Positions 32,442-47,419 of a stretch of DNA of 64,000 nucleotides are shown piece by piece. The stretch is from an uncultured bacterium (GTDB taxonomy: Bacteria > Chloroflexota > UBA5177 > JANWHV01), in the NCBI GenBank assembly GCA_963827235.1, contig CAWHAE010000008.1, positions 160,001 through 224,000 of the forward strand. The letters run 5' to 3'. The position numbers and the translations under genes are program-made. Under the pieces are notes generated by a model. The model had not been told where the DNA came from. It worked only from the letters and a program-made list of their open reading frames with translations, and did not search any database. Position 1 is the first letter of the stretch. Every line of letters begins with the position of its first letter.

Positions 32442-33406
32442 GGACTACTCTTCCCTTCGTGCCAACGGCATCGAAAATGCGGCGCACTTCGTTTCGGATT
32501 GTCGACCTTCTGCAGCATGGGCAGCGGCAGCTTCCCCTTGAGGAGCATCCGCACGCCCTGCGGCGCGTTGCGGATCTGACCAGTGACGTTGGTGATCCCG
32601 GTGAGCTCCATAACCAAGCGGGTCTCGTCAAGGCGTCCGCCGCGCCCGATGCTCTTGGTGAACTCCTGACTGTGTCTGGCGCCAATGTTCTTGGTGATCC
32701 CTGCCTGAATGGACATGCGGCGCAAGTCCGCAATGGCGCTGGCGGGATCGACGTGCTTCGGGCATTCCATGCAGCTATAGGCGTGTGCACAGTCCCAAAG
32801 GCCCAGATCGACCAGCTTCTGGAGACGCTCCTTCCGCTTGCTGTCGCGTGGATCGGTAACGAAGCGATGCGCCTTGGCCAAAGCGGGCGGGCCGGCGAAA
32901 TGGCTGTCGACCTCAGTGACGCTACAGTCGGAGTAGCAGACGGCGCACAGAATACAGTTGAGATCCTTGCGCGAGGGCGACAACTGCGCCGGGCTGACTC
33001 GATACTCTGCGTTCGCGGCCGGCACCTTGGCCGGATCGGGCTGTAGCCAGGGCTCGACGTCTCGAAAGTGCTTCCAGAACGGGGCCATGTCCACGACCAG
33101 GTCCTTGATCACCTTCATGGTGCGCATAGGGGTGATGCGCAGCTCGGTGCGGCCCCGCTTAAGCTCGGCCGCGATTGGCGTCTTGCAGACGAGCTTGGTG
33201 TACCCGTTCACCACCATGGCGCAGGATCCGCAGATTGAGTGCCGGCAAGCCCGCCGATACGCCAGCGAGTCATCGTGGTGGTCCTTGATCGTGTTCAGCC
33301 CGTCCAGGATCGTGGCTTCATCCCACAGGTCCAGCTCGTACCGCTCGAAGTGGGGCGCATCGTCTTTTCCGGGAACATACCGCTGGATCAGGAAAGTCGA
33401 CTTCAT
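32438..33406 (-). CDS. sdhB: Succinate dehydrogenase/fumarate reductase Fe-S subunit
   Basis: CRHSICGSC, CILCAVCYSDC, CAHAYSCMECP. Confidence 0.9.
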   Translation of the reverse strand: MKSTFLIQRYVPGKDDAPHFERYELDLWDEATILDGLNTIKDHHDDSLAYRRACRHSICGSCAMVVNGYTKLVCKTPIAAELKRGRTELRITPMRTMKVIKDLVVDMAPFWKHFRDVEPWLQPDPAKVPAANAEYRVSPAQLSPSRKDLNCILCAVCYSDCSVTEVDSHFAGPPALAKAHRFVTDPRDSKRKERLQKLVDLGLWDCAHAYSCMECPKHVDPASAIADLRRMSIQAGITKNIGARHSQEFTKSIGRGGRLDETRLVMELTGITNVTGQIRNAPQGVRMLLKGKLPLPMLQKVDNPKRSAPHFRCRWHEGKSSP

Positions 33407-35088
33407 TAGTACACCCTCTCCATTGGCTGGAACTTGCCCATGGTGACCGGCGCGTAGCTGATTTGCGGCCCTTCGGGCGAGTAGGTTGCGACCGTATGCT
33501 TGAGCCAGTTCGCGTCGTCGCGATCCTTGTAGTCGGTCCTCGCGTGGGCGCCGCTGCTTTCGGTGCGCGCCAGAGCCCCGGCAGCAATGACCTCGGCAAG
33601 GTCGAGCATCGCTCCCAGCTCCAGCGCTTCGCAGAGTGCGGTATTAAGACCAGCGACGTGTCGGCGATGGTCACTGAGGCGTACCGGTCGCGCAAAGTGC
33701 GGATCTTCCTCAGCCCCTCTGCCATCTGGTCTTGGTACCTGAAGATATGGAAGTGCTCATTCATGGTAGCCTGCATGGCGTCTCGTAGGTCAGCTACCTT
33801 CTCGGTGCCTTGTCCGCTGAAGAGCTCGTCGCGACGCTCCTCCTGCACTCGCACGGCGTCGTCCGGGAAGCTCGAGTAGTCGTGTTCTTTCGCGTGCTTG
33901 GCGGCGCTCGCGCCCGGCGATCTTGCCGAACACCACCGTCTCCAGCAGCGAGTTGCCTCCCAGGCGGTTCGCGCCGTGCACGCTGACGGCCGCGCACTCT
34001 CCCGCGGCGAAGAGGCCCTGTACCGAGGAAGCACAGCGCGTGTCGACGCGAATGCCTCCCATGGTATAGTGAGCGCCCGGGCGGATAGGCACGGGCCCAT
34101 CGACCGGATCGACGCCGGCGAAGTCGGTTGCCAGCTCGCGAATCTGCGGTAGTCGCTCCTGGATTCTGGCCTCGCCAAGGTGTCTCAGGTCGAGAAGAAC
34201 ACAGCCGTTCACGCCGCGGCCTTCCAGTATCTCAGTCCACTCGGCGCGAGACACGACGTCGCGGCTGGCCAGCTCACCCTTCGAGGGAGCGTACTTGAAC
34301 ATGAATCGCTCGCCGTCGGCGTTGAGCAGGTACGCGCCTTCTCCACGCGCGCCTTCTGTGATCAGCACGCCGTTCGCCGCCAGGGTAGTCGGATGGAACT
34401 GTATGAATTCCATGTCCTCTACGGGAACTCCGGCCCTGTAGGCGATTGCTACGCCGTCGCCTGTGCTGATCAGCGAGTTCGTGCTCTTGAAGAACACACG
34501 TCCCGCCCCCCCGGCCGCGAACACGACGGACTTGGCTCGAAAAGCGATGAGCTTACCCGTGGTGATATCCAGGGCCACCACTCCCTTGCACACTCCGTCT
34601 TCCACGATCAGCGAGGTGACGAAGAACTCCTCGTAGACTGTCGCACCGTTCTTGAGCACCTGCTCGTACACGGTCTGGAGAATGACGTGTCCGGTAATGT
34701 CGGCAACAAAGCAGGTTCGTGGGAATCCGGCGCCGCCGAACGGCCGCGTTGCGATGCGCCCGTCCTGCCACCGGCTGAACAGGACACCTTGATGCTCGAG
34801 CTCGTAGATACTCTCGGGCGCGAGACGAGTGAGTATCTCCGCGGCATCCTGATCGGCCAGGTAGTCACTACCCTTCACCGTGTCAAACCAATGGTTCTCC
34901 CAGTTGTCGTCTTTGGCGACGGCCGCATTGATACCGCCTTGAGCGGCGCCTGAGTGGCTGCGCATCGGGTGGACCTTCGAGAGGACTGCCGTGTCCGCCC
35001 CGGCTTCGCGAGCGGCAACCGCGGCACGCATGCCTGCCAAACCGGCGCCGACCACGAGAACCTCATGTTGGATCACAGTGTCGCCCAT
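33406..35088 (-). CDS. sdhA: Succinate dehydrogenase flavoprotein, compensating frameshifts near 33914 and 33647
   Basis: GAGLAG, RSHSGAAQGG, QFHPT, HYTMGG, HGANRLGGNSL, ESSGAHAR. ATG at 35088 with AGGAGG. Confidence 0.92.
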
Positions 35089-35614
35089 GTCGTGGCTGAC
35101 CTCCTGGCTGCAAATGACGCCGTCCTGGCGTCCGATACACATGTCGGTACCACAGTCCAGCCTGGCACGCGCGCCGGATGTGGATCGCGGTGGGTCTGCT
35201 TTGGTGTAGGCTCTTGGCGTCCCGGCGTCAAGTGCGCGTTCGCGGCCGCGCTTCCCTTGGACGCTTCGCCTCTATTTCAGTGTAGGCCGCCGCTGGAAAC
35301 CGCGCTGGTGCGACACAGCAGCGGTCCGTGCGAATTGCGCGACAGAGTGCTTCGGCCCGGCAATCCTGGGTGCCGCGGACGCCTCCGCACGTGCAGGGCA
35401 TAGCCTGCATGGTTCTGAGATAACACACAGCAGCGTTTGAGCGTAGGCGTGTTCCCAGACACGCGTTGCCCGCGCATCCGCTCACCGGTGATGCAAGCCG
35501 GCGCTTGGATGGGCGGGCAGCGATCTGACTCCACGCTCGCGGCAAGCCTATCCCACGGGCTGCTGCCGCTGCGGTAGCCCGGGCACGGTCGTCGAGAGTG
35601 CCCGGGGCGTGATC

Positions 35615-36952
35615 CTACTCATATCGAAGTGCTTGAATCGGGTCCAGGGCCGCCGCTCGGCTGGCGGGATAGCTGCCAAAGAAAAGACCGATGGCCAGCG
35701 AGACTCCAAAGGCAAGAGCCACGGAGTTCGAGCTGATCACCGGTGTCGCGCTGCCGAAGAATCCGGACAGAACTTTCACATCCGAGAGAAGCCACGCGAC
35801 CAGGAAGCTCATGCCGACGCCGATGGCACCACCCGTCGCACTGATCATTATCGACTCGGTCAGAAACTGCATGAGGATATCGATCTTGCGGGCCCCGACG
35901 GCCTTGCGAAGCCCGATCTCGCGGGTTCGCTCCGTCACGGTGACCAACATGATGTTCATGATCCCTATGCCCGCGACCAGGAGTGCACAGGCGGAGACAC
36001 CGGCCAACAGGGTCGTCAGCGTACCGGAGACACTGGAGGCCGTCTGCTGCACAGTCGTCTGGCTAAAGAACGAGAAGTCGTCGGACGCCGAGTACGTCAA
36101 GCGATGCAGGCTCCGCAGCATGCTCTCGACCTCCGCCTCGGCCAGATTGGTGGTACTCTGTTTCGTCGCCTCGATGTTGATCGACGAGAGCGATCCGGTG
36201 CTGCCCGAGGAGTGCGGCAAGATGGTCTGAGCCGTGGTCAGCGGGACGTACACCACGTTGTCCTGGTTGACGCCGCCGCTTCCGCCCTTGGACGCCATTA
36301 CACCCACGATCTCGAAGGTTATGCCGTTGAGTTGCACCGACGAACCCACGGTAGCGGAAGCAGACTCGTTGGGAAACAACGTGCTCAACAGCGTGGCGCC
36401 GATGCATACCACCTGGGATCGACTCACGAGATCGCTGCTGGTAACGAACCGGCCAATGGCAACCTGGGCGTTGCGAACGGTCTCGTACTCAGGCGTAACG
36501 CCGTCGACGGACGTGTACGTGTTTTCGCTGCCTGCCACGATCTGAGCGTTCGTGTCGAACTCGGGGGCAACCAATGCCACGTCCGGCAGGCTGCCCGAGG
36601 AGCCGGCGTTGTCGGCCAACGTCTGCGCATCCGACAGCTTCAGCGTACTCGACGATCCCATGGCGCCGCGGACACCTCCTGAGAACGTAGAGCCGGCCTG
36701 CACCTCCACGAGATTTGTGCCAAGCGAGCTGAGCTGAGAGTTAACCTGGCTCGCCGAGCCGTTGCCGATGCCGACGGCTACGATGACCGAGGCCACGCCG
36801 ATGATCATGCCCAATAGCGTAAGGGCCGTGCGCGCCTTGTTCGTGAGAATCCCCGTCACGGCGACGTTCATCGTCGTGAGGACCTGTGCTAGCACCGCGA
36901 TGGGAGGACGTCCGGACGCCTGCTCTGCCGGATGTAAGGCTTGTGTTGCCAT
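35615..36952 (-). CDS. MacB/YknZ-type ABC permease without fused ATPase
   Basis: LTLLGMIIGVASVI, GIGIMNIMLVTVTERTREIGLRKAVGA, YPASRAAALDPIQALRYE. Confidence 0.93.
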   Translation of the reverse strand: MATQALHPAEQASGRPPIAVLAQVLTTMNVAVTGILTNKARTALTLLGMIIGVASVIVAVGIGNGSASQVNSQLSSLGTNLVEVQAGSTFSGGVRGAMGSSSTLKLSDAQTLADNAGSSGSLPDVALVAPEFDTNAQIVAGSENTYTSVDGVTPEYETVRNAQVAIGRFVTSSDLVSRSQVVCIGATLLSTLFPNESASATVGSSVQLNGITFEIVGVMASKGGSGGVNQDNVVYVPLTTAQTILPHSSGSTGSLSSINIEATKQSTTNLAEAEVESMLRSLHRLTYSASDDFSFFSQTTVQQTASSVSGTLTTLLAGVSACALLVAGIGIMNIMLVTVTERTREIGLRKAVGARKIDILMQFLTESIMISATGGAIGVGMSFLVAWLLSDVKVLSGFFGSATPVISSNSVALAFGVSLAIGLFFGSYPASRAAALDPIQALRYE

Positions 36953-36953
36953 G

Positions 36954-39900
36954 TTATCTACCCGGTCCTCCGCCCATACCGCCCATGCCACCCATGCCCC
37001 CCATACCGCCAATGCCGCCTGAGCTGCTCGACGCACTGGTGGTGCCGGAGGTCGTGGGCACGATGATCCTCTCGTTTTCCTGCAGACCGCTCAGGACCTG
37101 CGTGTAGCTCGTGTCGCTTGTGCCCGTCTGGACCTGCACTTGCGATATCTGGTTCGTGGCGCTCAGAGTTTCCACGAAGCTGCCCGCCGCGTTGGTAGTG
37201 ACGGCCTGCGTGGGTACTTCCAGCACATTGCTGACCTGGGCGGTGACTATCGTCAGATCGGCGGTCATGCCCGCTGTTATGCCCTTCGTGCTGCCGGATA
37301 GCTTGATCTTCACGGGATAGGTCGTCACATTGGATGAGGTGGTCGCCGCGTAGGGTATGCTGCTGACCAGGCCGACGTACGTCGTGGATGGATAGGCGCT
37401 GAAAACCAGTGCTACCGGGTCGCCGATCTGGATACTGGCTATCTCGGCTTCGGGGATGTCAGCTGTCACGTCTATGCCCTGCGTGGTCAGCATCGTGATC
37501 GCCGCGGTGCTGGAGCCGGCGGCCTCGCCATTCACGATGCTGACGGACTCGACCGTACCGTCGCTGGGCGCGTAGATCTTCGTTTCGCTCTCGGCCAGAG
37601 CCTGATCGACCTTCAGCGTCTGCTTCGCCTGGGCGAGACTTGCCTTCAGGATGGCAAGCTCGGTTGCCGTGTAGGGATGGATGACCAGGTCGAGCGCAGC
37701 CTGTGCGCTCTTGACTGCCTCCTCCTGCTGCGCGATATCGTTGGAGGAATTCGGCTGCTTCGCCAGGTCGAGAGCGATCTGAGCGTTGACCACGGAGTCC
37801 TGCGCCTGCTGGATATCGGTCGTGCTTCCGGGGTGCTCGGCGAGAGCCAACGCCTGCTCTTCGGCTACCACGTTGTCACGGGCCTGCTGGATGTCGGTTG
37901 TACTGTTAGGCTGCTTTGCAGCTGCAAGAGCGGACTCAGCGCTGGCAACGGTCAGCTTCTGTTGGGCGATGTCGACCGCCGAGTTCGGCTGCTTTGCCGC
38001 GACCAGCGCAGCCTGAGCGCTCGATACTGCATCCTCTGCCTGGCGAATATCCTGAGCGGAGTATGGTTGCTTCGTTGAAGTCAGTGCTGCCTGCGCGCTC
38101 TTGACCGCCGCCTCCTGCGAGACGATGTCGGTCGCGGAATTGGGTTGCTCGACGGCGACTAGTGCGGCTTTCGCGCTCTGTACTGCCGCTTCCTCCGACG
38201 CGATGTCGGCGGCTGAGTTGGGCTGCTCGGCAGCTGCCAGGGCCGCTTTCGCGCTCTGTACTGCCGCTTCCTCCGACGCGATGTCGGCGGCTGAGTTGGG
38301 CTGCTCGGCAGCTGCCAGGGCCGCTTTCGCGCTCTGTACTGCCGCTTCCTGCGACGCGATGTCGGCAGCGGAGTTGGGTTGCTCGGCCGCGGCCAGACTC
38401 TCCTGGGCGCTCTTGACCGAGTCTGCCTGCGAAGCGATATCGGTCTGCGAGTTGGGCTGTTCCGCCGCCGCGAGCACGGTATTGGCGTTGTTGACCGTGA
38501 CTTCCTGCGAGGCAATCTGAGCCGCCGTGTATGGATGCTCGGCAGCAGTAAGTGCCTCCTGTGCGCTCGTGACCGCCGCCTCCTGGGAGGCGATATCGGT
38601 TGCGGAGTTGGGCTGCTTGGCCGCGACAAGCGCGGCCTCGGCGCTTCGAACGGCGATCTCCTGGGAGGCAATGTCGGATGCCGAGTTTGGCTGTATTGCC
38701 GCGGCCAGCGCCACCTGGGCGCTCTTCACGGTTGCCTCCTGTGAGGCAATGTCCTGCGTTGTATAGGGGTGCTCGGCCGAGTACAGGGATGCCTCAGCCG
38801 TCGCGATGGCATCTTTTGCGGAGGCCAGGTCCGTGGCACTGGCGGGCGCGGTAGCTGTGGTGAGCGCCGCTTCGGCCGATTTCACCGAGTCCTCGGCGGA
38901 TGCGAGAATCGGTTGAGCTAGCCGGCGCCAGCGCCGCGTCTAGCGACGCCTGGGCCGAGATGATGGAATCCTGTGCGGACGCAAGATCCGTGGCAGTGGC
39001 CGAGCCACTCTGAGCCGTGTCGAGCGAGTTCTGAGCCTGAATCACGGCGTCCTGGGCCTTGGCCAGGTCGGTGGAAGTCGGCGAGGGCGACTGGTCCGCG
39101 TTCAGCTTCGCTTGCGCGGCAGCGACCTGCTGCTGAGCGAGAGTTACGGCATTCGCTTCGGGACTATTCAGAGCGGCGAGGGCAGCGGTGGCGCTTGCCA
39201 CACTGGCGTTGTCGTTGGCGATGTTGGCCTCATCGGTGGCCAGATTCTCAAGGTAGGTCGCTTCTTCGCTCGATAGGGTGGTGGAGCTGGTGGTGCTGGA
39301 AGCCACGGGCGCCGTAAGCAGCGAGAGCGCTACCTGGTCTGTCTGCAGCTTGTTCTGAGCGGATAGCAATGTGGCCTTGGCTTGGGCGACAGATGACGCA
39401 GTCGGGTTGGACAGGCTATTGAGTGAGTTCTGAGCCGACGTTAGGCTGGCCTGGTCGGAGTCCAGGGTGGCCGCCGTCGCCGGTGAGTAGAGAGCGGCCA
39501 GGCTCTGCTTTGCGCTGTCGAGGCTTGCCTTTGCCGAGGCGATCGTGGCAGCACTGGAAGGTGCTTGCAAGGCAATCAGCTTCTGTTTGGCGGAGTCAAG
39601 GCTGGCCCGTAGCTGTGCAAGCGTCGTCGCCGATGGAGCCGCCTTGAGGGCGATGAGCTTCTGCTTGGCGGAGTCGAGGCTGGTCTCGGCCTGCGCCACG
39701 GTCTGGGCGCTTGGTGGCGCCTGCAGGGCCTTGAGCTTTTGAATCGCCGAGTCCAGACTGGCCTTCGCCGCGACGAGCGTATTTGCATCCGGAGGCGACT
39801 GCATTTCGTTGAGCTTGATCTGGGCCTGCTGCATTGTGGCCTTGGCCTGAGCGATGGAGCTTGCCGTGCCACCCGTCTTCATAGCAGCGAGCTTAATCTG

Positions 39901-41247
39901 GGCCTGCTCGAGAGAGGCTTTGGCCTGAGCAATGCTGCTCGGCGTGCCGCCGGCCTTCATGGCTGCCAGCTTGATCTGGGCTTGCTTGAGTGTGATCTGG
40001 GCCTGCGCTATGCTCGTGGCAGTTCCGCCTGCCCTCATCGAGGCCAGCGTGATCTCGGCCTGCTGCAATGTGGCCTTAGCCTGAGCGATGCTGGAAGCGG
40101 TGCCGCCGGCCTTCATGGCAGCCAGCTTCAGCTCTGCCTGCTCGAGGCTCAGCTTGGCCTGGGCGATGCTGGAAGCGGTGCCGCCGGCCTTCATGGCAGC
40201 CAGCTTCAGCTCTGCCTGCTCGAGGCTCAGCTTGGCCTGGGCGATGCTGGAAGCGGTGCCGCCGGCCTTCATGGCAGCCAGCTTCAGCTCTGCCTGCTCG
40301 AGGCTCAGCTTGGCCTGGGCGATGCTGGAAGCGGTGCCGCCGGCCTTCATGGCAGCCAGCTTCAGCTCTGCCTGCTCGAGGCTCAGCTTGGCCTGGGTGA
40401 TGCTGGAGGCCGTGCCGCCCTTCTTCATGGCAGCCAGCTTCAGCTGAGCCTGCAGAAGCGAGGCTTTCGCCTGGGCGACGCTCGCGGCCGTGCCGCCTGC
40501 TTTTTCGGTCGCAAGCTTTGACTTGGCCTCGTCGAGAGCTTGCTGCGCCTGCGCAATGCTGGCCGCGGTCCCACCGGCCTCCATCGAAGCGAGCTTGGCC
40601 TGCGCGGCGGCAAGCGTGTTGGCGGCCTGGGCAATCGACGACGCGGTGCCGCCCTGCTCGAGCGCTGCCAGTTTCTGCTGTGCGGTATCGAGATTCAGCT
40701 GGGCCGTCTCGATGGAGGAAGCGGTGCCGTTTTGCAAAGCGGCCAGCTTCGATTTCGCCGAGTCGAGGCTGGCCACCGCTTCGGCGATGCTCGCCGCGGT
40801 CCCGCCCGCCTTCAACGCAGCAAGCTTGAGCTGTGCCTGCCGCAAGCTTGACTGCGCCTGCGTCAGCGAGTCAGGGTTGACGGGTGCGAGCTCCTTGTCC
40901 AGGTTGAGCTGGGCAGTGGTGACGGCATTCTGGTCACTCATCAGTGACAGCGAGAGCGACTGATCGCTGAGCGTAGCCAGTACCTGGTTCTTCTTCACCT
41001 TCTGCCCGGCGGTCGCGAGCACGCTTGCCACGGTGCCCGACGCCCCGAAAGTGAGCGAGTAAGAGGTGACATCCTCTGATGTTCCCGAGGGCGTTATGGA
41101 GGACGTGATCGTGCCGCGGGAGACCAGCATGACCCGTCCATCGATGCGCTGTGGCGTGCTGATTCCCGGTAGCGAGAAAGCGGCGGTCACACTGCCGCTG
41201 GTGACGAGAGCCGCGAGAAGAGCGAATCGAGCCGTGGTTCCTTTCAT
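36954..41247 (-). CDS. Giant MacA/YknX-type adaptor (membrane fusion protein), ~1430 aa, frameshift near 38907
   Basis: N-terminal anchor, lipoyl half SGTVASVLATAGQKVKKNQVLATL, ~40 26-aa helical repeats, second half IYAPSDGTV, beta-barrel (IPEAEIASIQIG, AGMTA), VPTQAV..TGTSD..LSGL. Removing one base joins the two ORFs. Confidence 0.88.
38167..38400. repeat. 78-bp tandem repeat x3 (descending arm QPNSAADIASEEAAVQSAKAALAAAE)
   Basis: Copies start at 38167, 38245 and 38323. Confidence 0.9.
40085..40396. repeat. 78-bp tandem repeat x4 (ascending arm AGGTASSIAQAKLSLEQAELKLAAMK)
   Basis: Copies start at 40085, 40163, 40241 and 40319, with a degenerate copy from 40397. Confidence 0.92.
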
Positions 41248-41706: not shown

Positions 41707-42903
41707 CTAGTCCGTACTGGTCAGGTAGCCGCTGGAGGTGCTGGAGCTCGTTGCGGATTGCAAAGCTGCGAGCAGAGCCTTCAGAAGGTCCTGGCTGGAC
41801 GAGCTGGACGAACTGGACGAGCTGGTGGAACTCGCCGCATTGGTGGCGCTGGCAGCATCGGACTGCGTGGAACTACTGTCGCTCGCGCCGGTACCGGCCG
41901 GCGGCGGAGGCGGCGGCAGGTTGCCGTTGCCGGCAACGCTGGAAAGAGCGGCCGCGAGCTCCTTGAGGAGGTCGTCTCCGGTCGTGGTCGAGGACGAGGA
42001 CGTGCTCGAGTCGGACGAGCTGGATGACGAGCTCGTGCCGCTCGCGGCGGTCTCGAGCGCAGTGGCCAGCTCCTTGAGCAGACTCTGGCTCTGATCAGTG
42101 CTGCTGCTCGTCGTGCTGGAGTCGGTTGTACTGGTCGACGAGCTGGTGCCGCTCGCCGACGTGGACGTGCTGTCCGAAGATGTGGCCGACTCCAGGGCGG
42201 AAGCGAGTGCGCTCAGCAGCTTCTGACCCCGTTCCACGCTCGCCGAATCAGACGACGAGCCGGAGCTCGTGTCGCCGGTCGCGTTTTCCAGCGCTGCGGC
42301 GAGGTCCTTCAGCATGCCACCGCCGGGAGGCGGCGGCGGGGCGCCGGTCTGCGCAGTCACTGCGGTAGAGCTGCCGCTACTGCTCGTGCTGTCGGTACCG
42401 GAGTCGCCGGTGATGCTCTGCAGGGCGCTGGCAAGGGCCTTTAGCAGATCCTGGCCCGTGAGCGTCGAAGACGAGCTGGATGTGGCGTCAGTACTGGTGG
42501 TGGCGTCGGCGCTGGTCGTGCCATCACTGCTCGTCGTCGAGCTGGTGCCGGCGGTAGAATCGCTGCTCTGACCGATCGCCGACTGCAACGCCTGGGACAA
42601 CGCCTGCAAGAGGTCCTGCCCCTGGAATCCCTGGCCGGACTGGTAGCCGGGCGGCGGCCCATAGGTGTTGCCGTCGTAGGTGATGCCGTTCGTGCTGCTA
42701 GTGGAACCCGACGTGGATGACGTATCGTACGAGCTTTCCAGGTTCTGCAGGGCGTCGTCGGACAGCTCGAGACTGTAGCTTGACTCGCTGGAGGAAGTAG
42801 TGGAGCTGGAGCCAGTTGCCTGGCTGAGGGCTTGTTCGAGAAGCTTTTCGAGACGGCTCGATTCACTGGACGATCCGGTACCGCCGATCGACGAGATACT
42901 CAT
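41707..42903 (-). CDS. Leaderless Ser/Thr-rich protein with seven amphipathic helix repeats and poly-Pro motifs
   Basis: ATG at 42903 after AAGGAG. (G)QDLLxALAxAL(Q/E)SA repeats separated by S/T linkers. Confidence 0.75.
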   Translation of the reverse strand: MSISSIGGTGSSSESSRLEKLLEQALSQATGSSSTTSSSESSYSLELSDDALQNLESSYDTSSTSGSTSSTNGITYDGNTYGPPPGYQSGQGFQGQDLLQALSQALQSAIGQSSDSTAGTSSTTSSDGTTSADATTSTDATSSSSSTLTGQDLLKALASALQSITGDSGTDSTSSSGSSTAVTAQTGAPPPPPGGGMLKDLAAALENATGDTSSGSSSDSASVERGQKLLSALASALESATSSDSTSTSASGTSSSTSTTDSSTTSSSTDQSQSLLKELATALETAASGTSSSSSSSDSSTSSSSTTTGDDLLKELAAALSSVAGNGNLPPPPPPAGTGASDSSSTQSDAASATNAASSTSSSSSSSSSSQDLLKALLAALQSATSSSTSSGYLTSTD

Positions 42904-43026
42904 TCGGCTCACTCCTTTTCGGCTCGGCTCGTGTCAGATGCGATATATACTTCAGGTCGACCTCTGCATCTAGTGTCGTCACGAATACCCGCATTTTCAG
43001 AGCGATAAAGGGCCGAAATTGAGGTT

Positions 43027-43489: not shown

Positions 43490-46400
43490 ATGGACGCCAA
43501 TCTTCGTCATTGCACGGCTCATCGCGTTGCCCGTCGTGTCCGTGGGTGGCCGCCAGTCATCGTGGCAGTGCTGGTTGCCAGTATCGTGATCGTTCCCTCG
43601 TGGAACGCAGGGCTCATTCAGGCGGCCTCTAGCAGCCAATCATCTGCCGTACTGCGTGCATCGAATGCAGCCGGCGGCGACACAGTGGCCCGATCGCGTG
43701 TTCTCGACGACGTCACCGCGACCACCGTGCCGACATCCACGTTCGTCCCCACGTCGACCACTGGTCCGACCACCGTCCCGACGTCCACATCCGTCCCCAC
43801 GTCGACCGCTGCCCCGACCACCGTCCCGACGTCCACGTCCGTTCCCACCTCGACGCCGGTGCCTTCGTCCACGTCGACCCACACGGTCGTGCCGACCTCC
43901 ACCGATACTGCGATCCCAACCTCGTCTGATACCGCGACGCAGACTTTCACGGCGACGTCGACGAACACCGCGATAGCCACGGCCACGTCGACGGTCGGAG
44001 GCCTGACACTGAGTCCGTCGTCGGGCGCCAGCGGCGCCAGCGTCTACATCTATGGGAGCGGGTTTTCGTCAAGCGAGGAAGTTTCCATCTATGTCGCCGG
44101 GACATATGACACGTATGTGTACGCCAGCAGCGGCGCGGTGAGCACATACATCTCGTTCCCCTCGACTACAATTACAGGTTACGTGGTCGTCGAGCTGCTC
44201 GGGGCCTCGAGCGGGCACGAGGACACCGGGGAATTCGATGTCACAAGCACCTCGAGTACCACACTCACGTTGTCTCCGACCTCCGGCTCAGCCGGTACCA
44301 CGGTGACGGCCTACGGTAGCGGATTCACGGCAGGGGAGACCGTCGAGGTCATGGCCAACGGCTCGGAGGTGGAAACCACGGCGACCTCGAGCAGCTCAGT
44401 CACCGTCTCCTTCACCTTTCCTTCGACCTCGAGCACCGGCTATAAGACGGTTGAGCTGTACGGACTCACCAGCGGGCATGTCGCCACTGCCTCCTTCTAT
44501 GTCTCCAGCACGTCGAGCACCACGCTCACGCTGTCGCCGACCTACGGAACCACCGGCAGTACCGTCACGGCGTACGGCACCGGATTTACGTACGGCGAGC
44601 TGGTCGAGCTGATGGCCAACGGCTCGTACGTCACAGAACAGACGGCCACGAGTACTGCGGTCACCATATCGTTCAGCTATCCCTCGACATCCAGCACGGG
44701 TTACCAGACAGTTGAAATGTACGGCCTCAGCAGCGGGCACACGGCTACCGCGTCGTTCGACGTGACAAGCACGTCGAGCAGCACGCTCACCTTGTCGCCT
44801 ACCTCGGGAAGTGCCGGCACGACGGTGACCGCCTACGGCACAGGGTTCACCTACGGCGAGTCGATCGAGCTGATGGCGAACGGCACGGAGGTAGAGGAAG
44901 TCACGGCGAGCAGCACTGCCGTCACCGTCTCGTTCAGCTACCCCTCGACGTCCAGCACTGGCTATCAAACGGTGGAGCTCTACGGTCTGAGCAGTGGGCA
45001 CACGGCGAGTGGTTCCTTCTACGTCTCGAGCACCTCGAGCAGCACGCTCACCCTGTCACCCACTTCCGGGACCACTGGTACCACAGTCACCGCCTATGGC
45101 ACCGGATTCACCTATGGCGAGTCGGTCGAGGTGCTGGCGAACGGCACCGAGATAGAGGTCGTGACGGCTACAAGCACGGCTGTGACGATCTCCTTCAGCT
45201 ACCCCTCTACGTCCGCCACGGGATATCAGACAGTAGAGCTCTACGGCCTGTCCAGCGGGCATACGGCGTCGGCCTCGTTCTACGTCACCGCTACGTCGAC
45301 CTCGAGCTTCACGTTGAGCCCGACCAGTGGCAAGCCGGGAGCGACGGTGTCGGCGACCGGCTATGAAACCACGTTCAGTCTTTATGGCGCTCAGACCGTC
45401 ACGATCAGCTTCGGCGGCACACAGGTCGCCACCGTGACGCCCGGCACCGCGGGCTACTTCAGCGTGTCCTTCACGGTCCCGAGCGGATTCAGCGGTACGG
45501 TGACGGTCACGGCCACCGCCGCGGCCTACGGCTATTCTGCCTCCCAGACCTTCTCGGTCGTCAAGCCAACGCTGACACTTGGTAGCAGCTCTGCGGTGCC
45601 CGGTACCCTGGTCTCGCTCAGTGGTACTGGATACACGCCGGGCGAGACTGTGACGATCACTCTGCCCGGGGGCGGCACCACCACTGCCACTGCCGGTAGC
45701 TCGGGCGCGCTGAGCACCTCGGTGACCATCCCGGCCGGTCTGTCCGCGGGTAGCGCCACGATCAGCGCGATAGGATCGAGCAGCCAGATCACGGTGAGCG
45801 CCACGCTGACCATAACCGGCGCCAGCCTGAGCGCAAGACCGGCCAGCGTCTCTGCAGGGAGCCAGGTCACGTTCAGCGGGAGCGGTTTTGCTCCCGGCGA
45901 AGTGGTGCAGCTCAGCGATTCGACAGGCGATAGCCAGAGCGTGGTGGCCGACAACCAGGGCGGCATGAGCGTAACGATTACGGTTCCTGCCACCCAGGTC
46001 ACGGGGTCGGCCGCGTTCACGGCACGAGGCCTGACGAGCAAATCGTCGGCATCGGCCACGGTCTTCGTGGCTGCGGTTGCCGTTCGTGCTGCTACCCCGA
46101 CCAGCACGCCGAGGCCGACCGTGCAGGTCTCGCCTACGGTGGCTGCTCCGAGCGCAAACACCGGTAGCTCCACCTGGTACTTCGCGGCCGGTCGCACGGA
46201 CAAGGGCTACAGCGAGCAGGTCGACGTGCTCAATCCCAATCATAGCTTGGTTCGCGGCACCATCACCCTGTACTACGGGAGCGGGAAGAGTACTTCCACC
46301 TCATTCAGCCTGGGAGCACTGGAACGCGGGACGTACGATGTGGGCAGCATTGTCGGCATGCAGCGCGGCATTGCAATTGTGATCAAAGCCGGCATGCCGG

Positions 46401-47419
46401 TGGCAGCGACGGTCACCGGCGAGCACGGCACAACCAACAAGACCGTGCTGAGCGGTGTCTCGGCGACGGCAGACAAGTGGTACTTTGCCGACGGCTATAC
46501 CACCAAGGCGTTCGTGGAAACCCTGGACGTGTTCAACCCAGGATCCACCTCCGCGTCCGTGCGGGTGACGTGGCCTCGGACCGGCGGCAAGTCCGTGCAG
46601 ACGACATTCACAGTGGCAGCGCATAGCGTGCGGTCGGTGTCCGTAAACAAGTATGTGCCAGGCACGTCGCATGCCATGATCGTGAGCTCCAATCACGCTG
46701 TGGTCGTGGCTCGCGAGACGGTATTCGGGTCCAAGAGCCAGGGGACTATGGTTACTCAGGGTACGTCACGTGCCGCGACCAAGCTCTACCTGGCCGAGGG
46801 CTCCACGACCGGTGGTGTCCAGGAATCGGTGACCGTGCTTGACCCCGGCAGCAAGAGCGCGCATGTTACGCTGACGTTCTATGCAAGTAGCGGCAAGTCC
46901 ATCGCCAAGCGCACGCTGACGGTCGGCAGCGTGCAGCGGCAGAGCATCGACGTCAACAGCATCACGAACTCGGCCTCGGTGGCGGCCGTTGTCAGCAGTG
47001 ACGTGCCGGTAGTGGCCGAGCGAATCATCTTCACCGGCAGCCCCAACGGAAGCTCCGCTGGCGGCACAGACGTGCTGGCGAGTGCGATCGCTGCCAGCGG
47101 CTGGGCCTTCGCCTCCGGTGACACGAGCGCCGGCAACAAGGAGTTCATCACTCTGCTCAACCCGGTGGGCAAGGCCGCGACGATCGTGGCCACCTGGTAC
47201 TCGAGCAGTGGCGAGCTCGTTCAGAGGCAGTTCACCCTGCCGGCCAACGCACGGATCACGATTGACGTCTCGCGCTCGGCGGGCACACTGCCGGCCGGAA
47301 GTCATGCCACGGTCCTGCGATCGCTGGCCGGTTCGCCGTTCGTCGTCGAACAGTCGCTCTATGATGGCGCGATGAAGCAGTGCGGCACGACGTCGGGCAC
47401 GTCGCTCGTCGGATCGTAA
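43490..47419 (+). CDS. Large secreted surface protein: Thr-rich linker, eight Ig/IPT-like repeats, four YFAxG-type (DUF5719-like) repeats
   Basis: Signal/TM segment, VPTST repeats, LTLSPTSGxxGTTVTAYGTGF modules, WYFAAGRT/WYFADGYT/LYLAEGST/WAFASGDT. Confidence 0.82.
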   Translation: MDANLRHCTAHRVARRVRGWPPVIVAVLVASIVIVPSWNAGLIQAASSSQSSAVLRASNAAGGDTVARSRVLDDVTATTVPTSTFVPTSTTGPTTVPTSTSVPTSTAAPTTVPTSTSVPTSTPVPSSTSTHTVVPTSTDTAIPTSSDTATQTFTATSTNTAIATATSTVGGLTLSPSSGASGASVYIYGSGFSSSEEVSIYVAGTYDTYVYASSGAVSTYISFPSTTITGYVVVELLGASSGHEDTGEFDVTSTSSTTLTLSPTSGSAGTTVTAYGSGFTAGETVEVMANGSEVETTATSSSSVTVSFTFPSTSSTGYKTVELYGLTSGHVATASFYVSSTSSTTLTLSPTYGTTGSTVTAYGTGFTYGELVELMANGSYVTEQTATSTAVTISFSYPSTSSTGYQTVEMYGLSSGHTATASFDVTSTSSSTLTLSPTSGSAGTTVTAYGTGFTYGESIELMANGTEVEEVTASSTAVTVSFSYPSTSSTGYQTVELYGLSSGHTASGSFYVSSTSSSTLTLSPTSGTTGTTVTAYGTGFTYGESVEVLANGTEIEVVTATSTAVTISFSYPSTSATGYQTVELYGLSSGHTASASFYVTATSTSSFTLSPTSGKPGATVSATGYETTFSLYGAQTVTISFGGTQVATVTPGTAGYFSVSFTVPSGFSGTVTVTATAAAYGYSASQTFSVVKPTLTLGSSSAVPGTLVSLSGTGYTPGETVTITLPGGGTTTATAGSSGALSTSVTIPAGLSAGSATISAIGSSSQITVSATLTITGASLSARPASVSAGSQVTFSGSGFAPGEVVQLSDSTGDSQSVVADNQGGMSVTITVPATQVTGSAAFTARGLTSKSSASATVFVAAVAVRAATPTSTPRPTVQVSPTVAAPSANTGSSTWYFAAGRTDKGYSEQVDVLNPNHSLVRGTITLYYGSGKSTSTSFSLGALERGTYDVGSIVGMQRGIAIVIKAGMPVAATVTGEHGTTNKTVLSGVSATADKWYFADGYTTKAFVETLDVFNPGSTSASVRVTWPRTGGKSVQTTFTVAAHSVRSVSVNKYVPGTSHAMIVSSNHAVVVARETVFGSKSQGTMVTQGTSRAATKLYLAEGSTTGGVQESVTVLDPGSKSAHVTLTFYASSGKSIAKRTLTVGSVQRQSIDVNSITNSASVAAVVSSDVPVVAERIIFTGSPNGSSAGGTDVLASAIAASGWAFASGDTSAGNKEFITLLNPVGKAATIVATWYSSSGELVQRQFTLPANARITIDVSRSAGTLPAGSHATVLRSLAGSPFVVEQSLYDGAMKQCGTTSGTSLVGS

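Follow-up and report, generated by a model that had tools for sequence, protein, structure and literature searches.

This report concerns a gene for a giant efflux adaptor in a stretch of 64,000 nucleotides (nt; hereafter the window) from an uncultured bacterium of the Chloroflexota (UBA5177; JANWHV01; GenBank assembly GCA_963827235.1, contig CAWHAE010000008.1, positions 160,001 to 224,000 of the forward strand). We refer to the genome of the window as G000, to the contig on which it lies as C8, and to the other genomes of the genus as G001 to G004. The gene occupies 36954..41247 on the minus strand and is followed by a gene for a MacB-type permease. A second, intact copy with a frame of 1469 amino acids (aa) lies on contig C12 of the same genome, and two same-genus homologues reach frame lengths of 1616 aa (G001) and 1365 aa (G002); we call these four proteins the giants. 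The features of the locus are as follows.

38909..41247, minus strand: N-terminal part of the adaptor gene up to a frame break, with start codon ATG at 41247; positions 3-133 of the model TIGR01730 fall on residues 39-169.
38907..38908, minus strand: TT dinucleotide with one surplus T; dropping one T gives a frame of 1430 codons, and a contig from the public sequencing run X1 lacks it.
36954..38906, minus strand: C-terminal part of the adaptor gene, including the stop codon TAA at 36954-36956; an open reading frame (ORF) with HlyD and TIGR01730 matches.
41170..41247, minus strand: N-terminal hydrophobic membrane anchor or signal segment (MKGTTARFALLAALVTSGSVTAAF...), read by eye from the translation and conserved in homologues.
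40894..41133, minus strand: N-terminal beta strands and first lipoyl (barrel-sandwich) half, residues ~39-118, from TIGR01730 and the equivalent of Biotin_lipoyl_2 in the paralog.
39325..40884, minus strand: ascending arm of 20 units, residues 122-641, from Tandem Repeats Finder and the 26-aa rows of the translation.
39169..39324, minus strand: tip of 2 units, residues 642-693, with a Ser/Thr-rich turn and the motif YL..LA.DEANIANDNA, from the 26-aa rows and comparison with homologues.
37608..39168, minus strand: descending arm of 20 units, joined residues 694-1213, spanning the frame break, from Tandem Repeats Finder and the 26-aa rows.
37047..37607, minus strand: second lipoyl half, beta-barrel and membrane-proximal region, from HlyD_D23, HlyD_3, TIGR01730 and PDB matches to EmrA and MacA.
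36957..37046, minus strand: Ser/Gly/Met-rich C-terminal tail (GGMGGMGGM...) with a 9-nt tandem repeat, from the translation and a repeat search.
35615..36952, minus strand: MacB-type permease of 445 aa (MacB_PCD and FtsX, from Pfam and NCBIfam), its ATG 1 nt past the adaptor stop.

As assembled, the adaptor gene appears as two minus-strand ORFs that overlap by 92 nt, 38794..41247 (817 aa) and 36954..38885 (643 aa). The minus-strand text at their junction is acc gat t ctc gca. The upstream frame reads ...LDAALAPASSTD and is nonsense beyond, and the downstream frame is nonsense until LASAEDSVKSAEAAL. When one T is dropped from the TT at 38908/38907, ...APASSTD is joined to LASAEDSVKSAEAAL in exact register with the neighbouring units ATDLASAQDSIISAQASL and SATDLASAKDAIATAEASL, and the resulting frame of 1430 codons is free of stops, with every repeat unit in register. 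In run X1, a 151-nt contig (depth 2) spans 38864-39015 and differs from the window solely by one base missing at 38907, and a second contig from this run (38722-38872) is identical to the window. X1, which is possibly the source sample of the assembly itself, was the single partial match of the public-run search. The coverage by X2 and X3 is confined to the low-complexity tail and a few short, dispersed stretches, and none of these three runs is recorded as RNA.

Other genes of this assembly switch frame as well. The single-copy rpoB gene (G000:C14:446429-449745) is split into 6 matching pieces over three open frames, which implies several indel errors in an essential gene. In the window, an sdhA-like gene for a succinate dehydrogenase/fumarate reductase flavoprotein (33318-35142, minus strand) falls into three pieces that pass from frame 1 to 2 and back to 1; the two switches lie ~300 nt apart, the middle piece is good SdhA sequence, and both switches look like assembly indels. 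This means that frame breaks in this assembly are not to be taken as pseudogenes without reads. The C12 paralog and both same-genus homologues are unbroken at the unit equivalent to the break. Because the X1 contig lacks the surplus base, rpoB and sdhA switch frame, removal of the base restores the register and the homologues are unbroken, we hold with high confidence that the break at 38907 is an assembly error. Thin as the depth of X1 is, the base that it lacks is the very one that has to go for the frame to be restored.

As judged from its sequence, the joined gene encodes one membrane-fusion (periplasmic adaptor) protein of the MacA/YknX type, of ~1430 aa and about four times the usual size. 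On the C-terminal ORF, Pfam detects HlyD_D23 (5.8e-11, 42.5 bits, cut-off 30) and HlyD_3 (2.9e-09, 38.1 bits, cut-off 22.2), and the NCBIfam model TIGR01730 (efflux adaptor subunit) aligns to both ORFs, to the N-terminal one with its positions 3-133 (1.7e-23) and to the C-terminal one with its positions 52-308 (9.9e-10). The lipoyl (barrel-sandwich) domain is split in two by a helical insert that measures 1097 aa from anchor to anchor. The C12 paralog carries Biotin_lipoyl_2 at residues 100-126 and HlyD_D23 at 1182-1342. A hydrophobic stretch (FALLAALVTSGSVTAAF, read by eye from the translation) follows a basic N-terminus and is kept in homologues. Among PDB sequences, the C-terminal ORF matches EmrA best (5e-07, in an alignment that takes in the last hairpin helix, the lipoyl half and the barrel) and also MacA (4.2e-06). 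A Foldseek search with a model of a 925-aa relative from the same class (G008) returned MacA chains at the top (5.4e-15 for 9qgy_G to 3e-10) and chain 5xu0_B of Spr0693 at 2.2e-08. The globular domains of this model are confident (predicted local distance difference test, pLDDT, 70-87); these matches describe the fold of the G008 protein. The domain matches, the MacB-type permease next door and the matches of the G008 model together lead to the assignment as a MacA/YknX-type adaptor.

The insert consists of 42 units of 26 aa, namely 20 ascending, 2 tip and 20 descending units. With Tandem Repeats Finder, a 78-nt period emerges at 38090-38753 and at 39812-40497 (scores 377-754), together with higher periods of 156 and 234 nt, and the 26-aa register runs unbroken through residues 122-1213 with a single 25-aa unit, in the ascending arm. 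Thirteen ascending units are of a GGT type (consensus GGTASSIAQAKxxLxQAxxKLAAMKA), and 6 units nearer the tip are of a Pro/Ser type; the DNA of ascending units 8-10 is 100% identical. The tip units hold a Ser/Thr run at nt ~39268-39312. The descending arm has 5 tip-proximal units of an xPxxxTD type and 15 of a QPNS/HPYT type (consensus QPNSAxDIASQExxVxSAxxALxAAx). Across the 72 ascending units of the four giants, large hydrophobic residues occupy positions 6, 13, 20 and 23 with frequencies of 0.92-0.99, Ala occupies positions 9 and 16 (0.83 and 0.93), and Gly or Pro occupies positions 26 and 1 (0.89 and 0.83). This profile indicates that each unit is made of three canonical heptads (a-d-a-d-a-d) and a 5-residue Gly/Pro linker. 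The descending units have the same spacing in a less sharp profile, with registers that are off by 1-2 residues between proteins. The net charge of the window arms is +19 (ascending) and -40 (descending); the corresponding values are +19/-37, +33/-27 and +14/-7 in the other three giants and 0/-25 and -1/-15 in two mid-size relatives. The likeness between adaptor hairpins and the coiled coils of TolC is known, and is echoed by sub-threshold matches of the OEP (TolC) family inside the hairpins of the 925- and 935-aa adaptors of G008 and G013 (G008:C2:597646-597939, G013:C1:2185076-2185357).

Next, we compared the arms between relatives. The same-class genomes G008 and G013 encode adaptors of 925 and 935 aa. 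G003 yielded no match, and G004 yielded one weak match (E 1e-12, 757-aa frame) in one search and none in another, these two being assemblies of 420 and 650 contigs. Arm length was taken from a conserved start anchor (LAPxNPDS) to the tip motif and from there to an end anchor (SETxIxAP), and a unit was called young if its DNA was 85% or more identical to that of another unit. The arms, units and mirror positions (those that the young descending units would face in the ascending arm) are listed here.

Window: arms of 556 aa (ascending) and 544 aa (descending); 42 units (20+20 in the arms), 9+9 in the middle zone; young units ascending 7-10 (8-10 100% identical) and descending 33-35 (mirror 10-8).
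C12: arms of 556 and 543 aa; 42 units (20+20), 9+9 in the middle zone; young units ascending 7, 9 and 12 (6 and 8, at 0.85, unflagged) and descending 30-31 and 33-36 (mirror 13-12 and 10-7).
G001: arms of 634 and 622 aa; 48 units (23+23), 12+12 in the middle zone; young units ascending 8-12 and 14-16 and descending 32-34 and 36-42 (mirror 17-15 and 13-7).
G002: arms of 477 and 464 aa; 36 units (17+17), 6+6 in the middle zone; young units ascending 6 and 9 and descending 26 and 28 (mirror 11 and 9).
G008: arms of 276 and 282 aa.
G013: arms of 276 and 282 aa.

The arms are thus symmetric in all six proteins measured, and among the giants each arm changes in steps of 78-79 aa. The units close to the base and to the tip are orthologous in all four giants, and the middle zone alone varies. 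Matched arm lengths and mirrored young units are most simply read as antiparallel pairing, unit against unit, under which an alteration of either arm would be acceptable only if the other arm altered in step. The mirrored placement of the young units is suggestive, as the four proteins share their variable zone and are not independent, and the chance of such an overlap is ~0.1 for the window alone. The equality of the arms is likewise a reason to trust the copy numbers of the assembly, even though three 78-nt units are identical. The middle zone (window 39812-40596; homologues L008, L023 and L024) varies by three units (234 nt), which could be a unit of recombination or a structural phase.

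In their globular domains, the window protein is 53-60% identical to those of C12, G001 and G002, whereas C12 and G001 share 72-79%. This lower identity marks the window copy as an old paralog. The window and C12 copies, ~55% identical, both have 42 units, and G001, the closer relative of C12, has 48. The equal number would suit a length that is set by some feature of the cell, but this is one coincidence only and presupposes that C8 and C12 belong to one organism. We considered a chimeric bin that joins C8 and C12 from two organisms. The bin is 95.9% complete with 9% contamination and measures 8.0 Mb (4.4-5.4 Mb elsewhere in the genus), with a contig GC content of 63.4%-67.6%; rpoB, recA and rpsB are each single and all lie on C14, which favours one organism, and the contamination stays as a caveat. 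GGFGGGFGG tails end the homologous adaptors (compare GGMGGMGGM at 36957-37046 in the window), and a Gly/Ser-rich membrane protein after the C12 and G001 permeases also has GGFGG tracts (L008 3359-4462 and 6657-6750).

An earlier note on this DNA, written from its letters alone, had proposed most of this architecture, and the analysis bears it out. It had joined the gene into one ORF by removing a base near 38907, which agrees with the 1430 stop-free codons and with the X1 contig of depth 2, in which that T is missing, and it had recognised MacA/YknX domains, now matched by HlyD_D23, HlyD_3 and TIGR01730 on the two halves. Its count of about 1100 aa between the lipoyl halves (1097 aa measured), its 20+20 units with their consensus sequences, the position of the Ser/Thr turn beside the 2 tip units, and its Lys-biased ascending and acidic descending arms were all recovered. 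The pairing of the arms, with which it had found their charges consistent, is strengthened by the series of 17+17, 20+20, 20+20 and 23+23 units, which indicates that selection keeps the arms equal.

To place these proteins among known adaptors, we surveyed adaptor sizes. When 5.8 billion proteins were searched by word index for relatives of the full paralog (length range 807-2571 aa), 51 matches were obtained, among which the longest plain adaptor has 993 aa and the matches of 1534-1559 aa are MMPL fusions. A second search of this index for proteins above 1127 aa gave 2 matches, a tandem double adaptor and an adaptor with a Ser/Gly linker and FN3-like domains at its hairpin tip; both searches scored only the 7998 candidates that shared most words. 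HMMER, run exhaustively over 1.84 billion cluster representatives, gave 26,836 matches, the longest among the best 150 being 1045 aa. The closest three, all fragments, measure 298, 380 and 243 aa; two of them come from short contigs (3.8 kb and 1.2 kb), and the fragment of 298 aa is labelled Chloroflexota. Both anchors are present in 143 of the 208 sequences collected, with inserts of 964-1279 aa in the four giants and ~580 aa in the next plain adaptors (P0029, G008 and G013). Across the phylum, 277 of 401 genomes match the globular C-terminal part; among the 150 matches listed many frames measure 900-1040 aa, and a further 349 weaker matches lie outside these 150. Two listed frames above 1100 aa from outside the genus were discarded, one being a 962-aa gene (the longer frame holds an internal TAG) and the other a ~930-aa adaptor read together with its upstream gene. 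Among the matches listed, the longest adaptor checked outside the genus has ~1025 aa (G365). In the ESM Atlas, the clusters that come nearest consist of Chloroflexota adaptors with 499-950 aa and carry a YknX-like beta-barrel family, which we take as a lead only. A contig search was swamped by the GMGGMGGM pattern and returned 3 unrelated distant adaptors.

Long adaptors are therefore a trait of the Chloroflexota, and this genus is the extreme, with an insert ~1.4-1.8 times the longest checked elsewhere (~700 aa, G365). The earlier note had cautioned that elongated adaptors occur in this phylum; adaptors of 800-1040 aa are indeed common there, and among the sequences checked the giants occur only in this genus. 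Giants are probably under-counted, because their repeats break short-read assemblies and the closest database relatives are fragments on short contigs. In the literature searched (open-licence papers and preprints), no adaptor above 1000 aa and no modular expansion of a hairpin is described. The searches also returned other unusual architectures. In P0202 (1484 aa) the ascending and descending helices are short, and the hairpin tip between them carries a ~170-aa Ser/Gly tract and some nine FN3-like domains, which is another route to a very long insert between lipoyl halves. P0047 (930 aa) and P0201 (1133 aa) are two complete adaptors fused in tandem in a single frame; the halves of P0201 are nearly identical, and this protein may be an artefact of assembly or gene calling.

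The permease gene, which begins 1 nt past the adaptor stop, is complete, with matches to MacB_PCD (1.1e-42), FtsX (1.2e-19) and the NCBIfam MacB model PRK10535 (8.3e-62 over model positions 255-646). The order adaptor then permease is shared by the C12, G001, G002, G008 and G013 loci. At the C12 locus the genes after the adaptor encode, in this order, a MacB-type ATPase of 280 aa, a permease of 444 aa and the Gly/Ser-rich membrane protein mentioned above. An orphan MacB-type ATPase of 269 aa lies on contig C16 (G000:C16:785050-785790; L027 6042-6851) among unrelated neighbours (RodZ_C-like, GT2 and NHL repeat). It is 70% identical to the ATPase of the C12 locus, and the window and C12 permeases are 71% identical.

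With regard to the envelope, no Omp85/BamA match was found in G000 (95.9% complete). The OEP family scored above its cut-off in one of the 21 genomes of the class and in none of the four other genus genomes, although absence from incomplete genomes is no proof. This Chloroflexota bacterium thus appears to be without a classical outer membrane. The absence of Omp85 and the near-absence of OEP agree with the published view, set out in the accessible text of a paper on species in other classes, that Chloroflexota have no classical outer membrane and may have multilayered envelopes (PMC7332563). The same text gives a fibrillar envelope layer of up to ~72 nm in one Chloroflexota species (PMC7332563).

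From these observations we propose, as a reading that we find reasonably probable, that the giant adaptor hairpin grew by tandem duplication into a paired rod, and that six copies form a tube with a MacB-type partner whose ATPase acts in trans. The two arms would pair antiparallel, module by module, into a long segmented two-helix rod. By homology with MacA, YknX and Spr0693, six adaptor copies would sit on the permease dimer as a helical tube, which would carry substrate, or transmit the movement of the pump, through a thick envelope of several layers. The window permease would be energised by the orphan ATPase on C16. At ~3.3-3.9 nm per unit the rod would be up to ~60-80 nm long if straight; the Gly/Pro junctions may be hinges or set a superhelical path, and the rod may be a duct, a spacer or a transmitter of the mechanical stroke of MacB. 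Hexamerisation, a tube lumen and a ruler function are proposed from homology only. The comparative data support a paired hairpin; the extended shape and the function of the giant adaptor are proposals. A more specific version, which we offer tentatively and regard as rather doubtful, is that the hexamer is a segmented alpha-helical nanotube or rod of ~60-80 nm with 20 stacked rings of paired helices, whose length comes in quanta of three modules in each arm (17, 20, 23) and is tuned to how thick the multilayered envelope is, and that its hairpin serves as both ruler and export duct. If true, a tube of 60-80 nm would be by far the longest adaptor conduit known.

Several observations weigh against this proposal. 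The two adaptor halves, scored separately, reach 83.1 and 37.9 bits and so remain under the curated cut-off of TIGR01730 (94.9). One OEP (TolC-like) gene does exist in G000, at the start of the 153-kb contig C15 (G000:C15:88-1235); this may be a contaminant contig, given the 9% contamination of the bin, or an acquired gene. No ATPase gene lies between or beside the adaptor and permease of the window, and none of the nine MacB-type ATPase matches of the genome is on C8. The read support for the missing T is one contig of depth 2, perhaps from the assembly's own sample. AlphaFold2 models of the central 572 aa of the paralog (mean pLDDT 50.8, predicted template modelling score, pTM, 0.25) and of the G008 relative (921 aa; mean pLDDT 54.1, pTM 0.29) are of low confidence. 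Finally, a Gly-Gly or Pro break every 26 aa would permit fold-back or zig-zag packing, for which the folded-back hairpin of CusB is a precedent in the accessible text of PMC4446572.

The last two of these points bear on an alternative in which the adaptor is a giant but its Gly/Pro linkers fold the modules into a compact or zig-zag array, with a reach far below 70 nm. In both models the helical region has pLDDT values of 30-65, so that packing and length are unusable and only the secondary structure and globular domains were used; no confident extended hairpin emerges. DSSP assigns helices of 20-22 residues with a break of 4-6 residues at every unit, where Gly/Pro frequencies reach 0.83-0.89 (positions 26 and 1), which means that the hairpin is segmented and not one continuous coiled coil. 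A complex prediction of the base-proximal ascending units 1-5 with the base-proximal descending units 38-42 (4-row alignments, without controls) gave a score of 0.01 (mark 0.32), which counts neither for nor against pairing. Against this alternative, two unit types occur in equal numbers with matched steps, and arms are equal in all six proteins, which independent arms would not need; the heptad a/d pattern and the opposite charges fit two-stranded antiparallel pairing, as do the helices predicted in the models; and solved adaptors show an extended hairpin, with which kinks or supercoiling of a paired rod remain compatible. We therefore consider a compact array unlikely. For the earlier note, which had drawn a hairpin of up to 78 nm, this leaves the length standing as the upper bound of a segmented rod, whereas a straight, continuous coiled coil finds no support given the breaks at each unit. 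The monomer prediction that it had suggested, made for the central part of the paralog and for the G008 relative, yields segmented helices, and at a mean pLDDT of 51-54 no usable three-dimensional arrangement.

A second alternative takes the break at face value, with the window copy as a decaying or split paralog and only the C12 copy at work. The assembly as given does carry the surplus T, the read evidence against it is the single X1 contig, and the window locus lacks the ATPase gene that C12 has between adaptor and permease. However, that sole covering contig lacks exactly this base and is otherwise identical, and essential genes are also frame-switched (rpoB in 6 pieces, sdhA with 2 switches). 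No further stop or shift occurs in the 1430 codons, the permease is complete and begins 1 nt past the adaptor stop, and the orphan ATPase on C16 resembles that of C12 as closely (70%) as the two permeases resemble each other (71%). Decay of the window copy is thus improbable. A programmed +1 ribosomal frameshift or other recoding, which would suit two long overlapping ORFs that each hold part of one protein, was rejected as extremely improbable, since acc gat tct cgc contains no stop and none of the known slippery or pause contexts, the equivalent unit is unbroken in the paralog and in both genus homologues, a read-derived contig lacks the base, and rpoB and sdhA show frame switches of the assembly.

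Two neighbouring genes of the window deserve mention. Just upstream of the adaptor and on the same strand, 41707-42912 encodes a Ser/Thr-rich protein of 401 aa without a family match, in which short amphipathic motifs (GQDLLKALASALQS..., LLKELATALE...) stand between Ser/Thr tracts; a relation to the pump, for example as cargo, is conceivable. On the plus strand, 43490-47419 encodes a secreted-looking protein of 1309 aa with a Thr/Pro/Ser-rich start and several tandem repeats of ~95 aa (TLTLSPTSG..GTTVTAYGTGFT.GE), whose C-terminal half has weak matches to ASRT and CBM60 only. It is possibly a surface-layer or envelope protein.

The hairpin of an adaptor normally measures 60-130 aa, and adaptor hairpins are viewed as short connectors whose length is fitted to the periplasm. 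In this lineage the hairpin behaves as a modular element that grows by 78 aa on both arms together, up to ~600 aa per arm. The natural series of 11, 17, 20 and 23 modules per arm offers a test of how MacB-type pumps work without an outer membrane, of substrate conduction by adaptor tubes through the wall, and of the way in which trans-envelope machines match the thickness of the envelope in the poorly known Chloroflexota. The module itself, three heptads and a linker with a basic and an acidic arm, could be a design element for protein rods of defined length.

Among known systems, MacA (Escherichia coli and Aggregatibacter actinomycetemcomitans; PDB 3FPP, 4DK0, 5NIK and 9QGY) shares with the window protein the anchor, the lipoyl domain split by a hairpin, the beta-barrel and the membrane-proximal part, as well as a partner permease of the MacB type with a periplasmic core domain. 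It differs in that its chains of 341-371 aa carry a short continuous hairpin that docks on TolC, whereas the window protein has 1430 aa and 42 modules, and no TolC or BamA partner is apparent in its lineage (one OEP in one of the 21 class genomes). Unlike MacA/MacB, the window locus has no ATPase, and the locus of the C12 paralog has a separate ATPase gene. Tripartite Gram-negative pumps differ likewise, as G000 has no Omp85 and a TolC-family gene only at the start of C15.

Spr0693 of Streptococcus pneumoniae and YknX of Bacillus are closer in their separate ATPase and permease and in having no outer-membrane partner. According to the accessible text of PMC5768738, Spr0693 is a hexameric nanotube of a Gram-positive bacterium; its helical barrel measures 31 A in width and 56 A in height, and the whole assembly, which spans ~154 A, has been proposed to guide substrates into the wall. 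YknWXYZ protects Bacillus from the SDP toxin, and its YknX forms a hexamer like that of MacA, as stated in the part of PMC8277102 consulted. Compared with that of Spr0693, the window hairpin has ~10 times as many residues in each arm, and Gly/Pro linkers divide it into segments. EmrA (Aquifex aeolicus 4TKO; E. coli 8ZAL/8ZAR) resembles the window protein in its long helical domain and is its best sequence match among solved chains; it is described as having an extended coiled coil of 127 A (PMC4158417). EmrA and HlyD differ in their partners (major facilitator superfamily or type I secretion, with TolC) and are several-fold shorter. Their hairpins vary by heptad insertions (PMC4446572, accessible text), and the window hairpin varies by 26-aa modules with linkers.

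The window protein also resembles the Chloroflexota adaptors of 800-1040 aa (G008, 925 aa; G013, 935 aa; G346, 962 aa; G365, ~1025 aa; P0029, 922 aa), of which no description was found in the literature searched. They belong to the same family and share the module xPxxxD[IV]xxAxxxVxxAxxxL, with ~11+11 units in arms that are likewise symmetric (276/282 aa); they too have a Gly-rich tail, and a permease gene follows theirs. Their inserts measure ~470-700 aa, compared with 964-1279 aa in the giants of this genus. The giant adaptor is thus a very large variant of a known protein class, and its novelty lies in its scale and symmetry.

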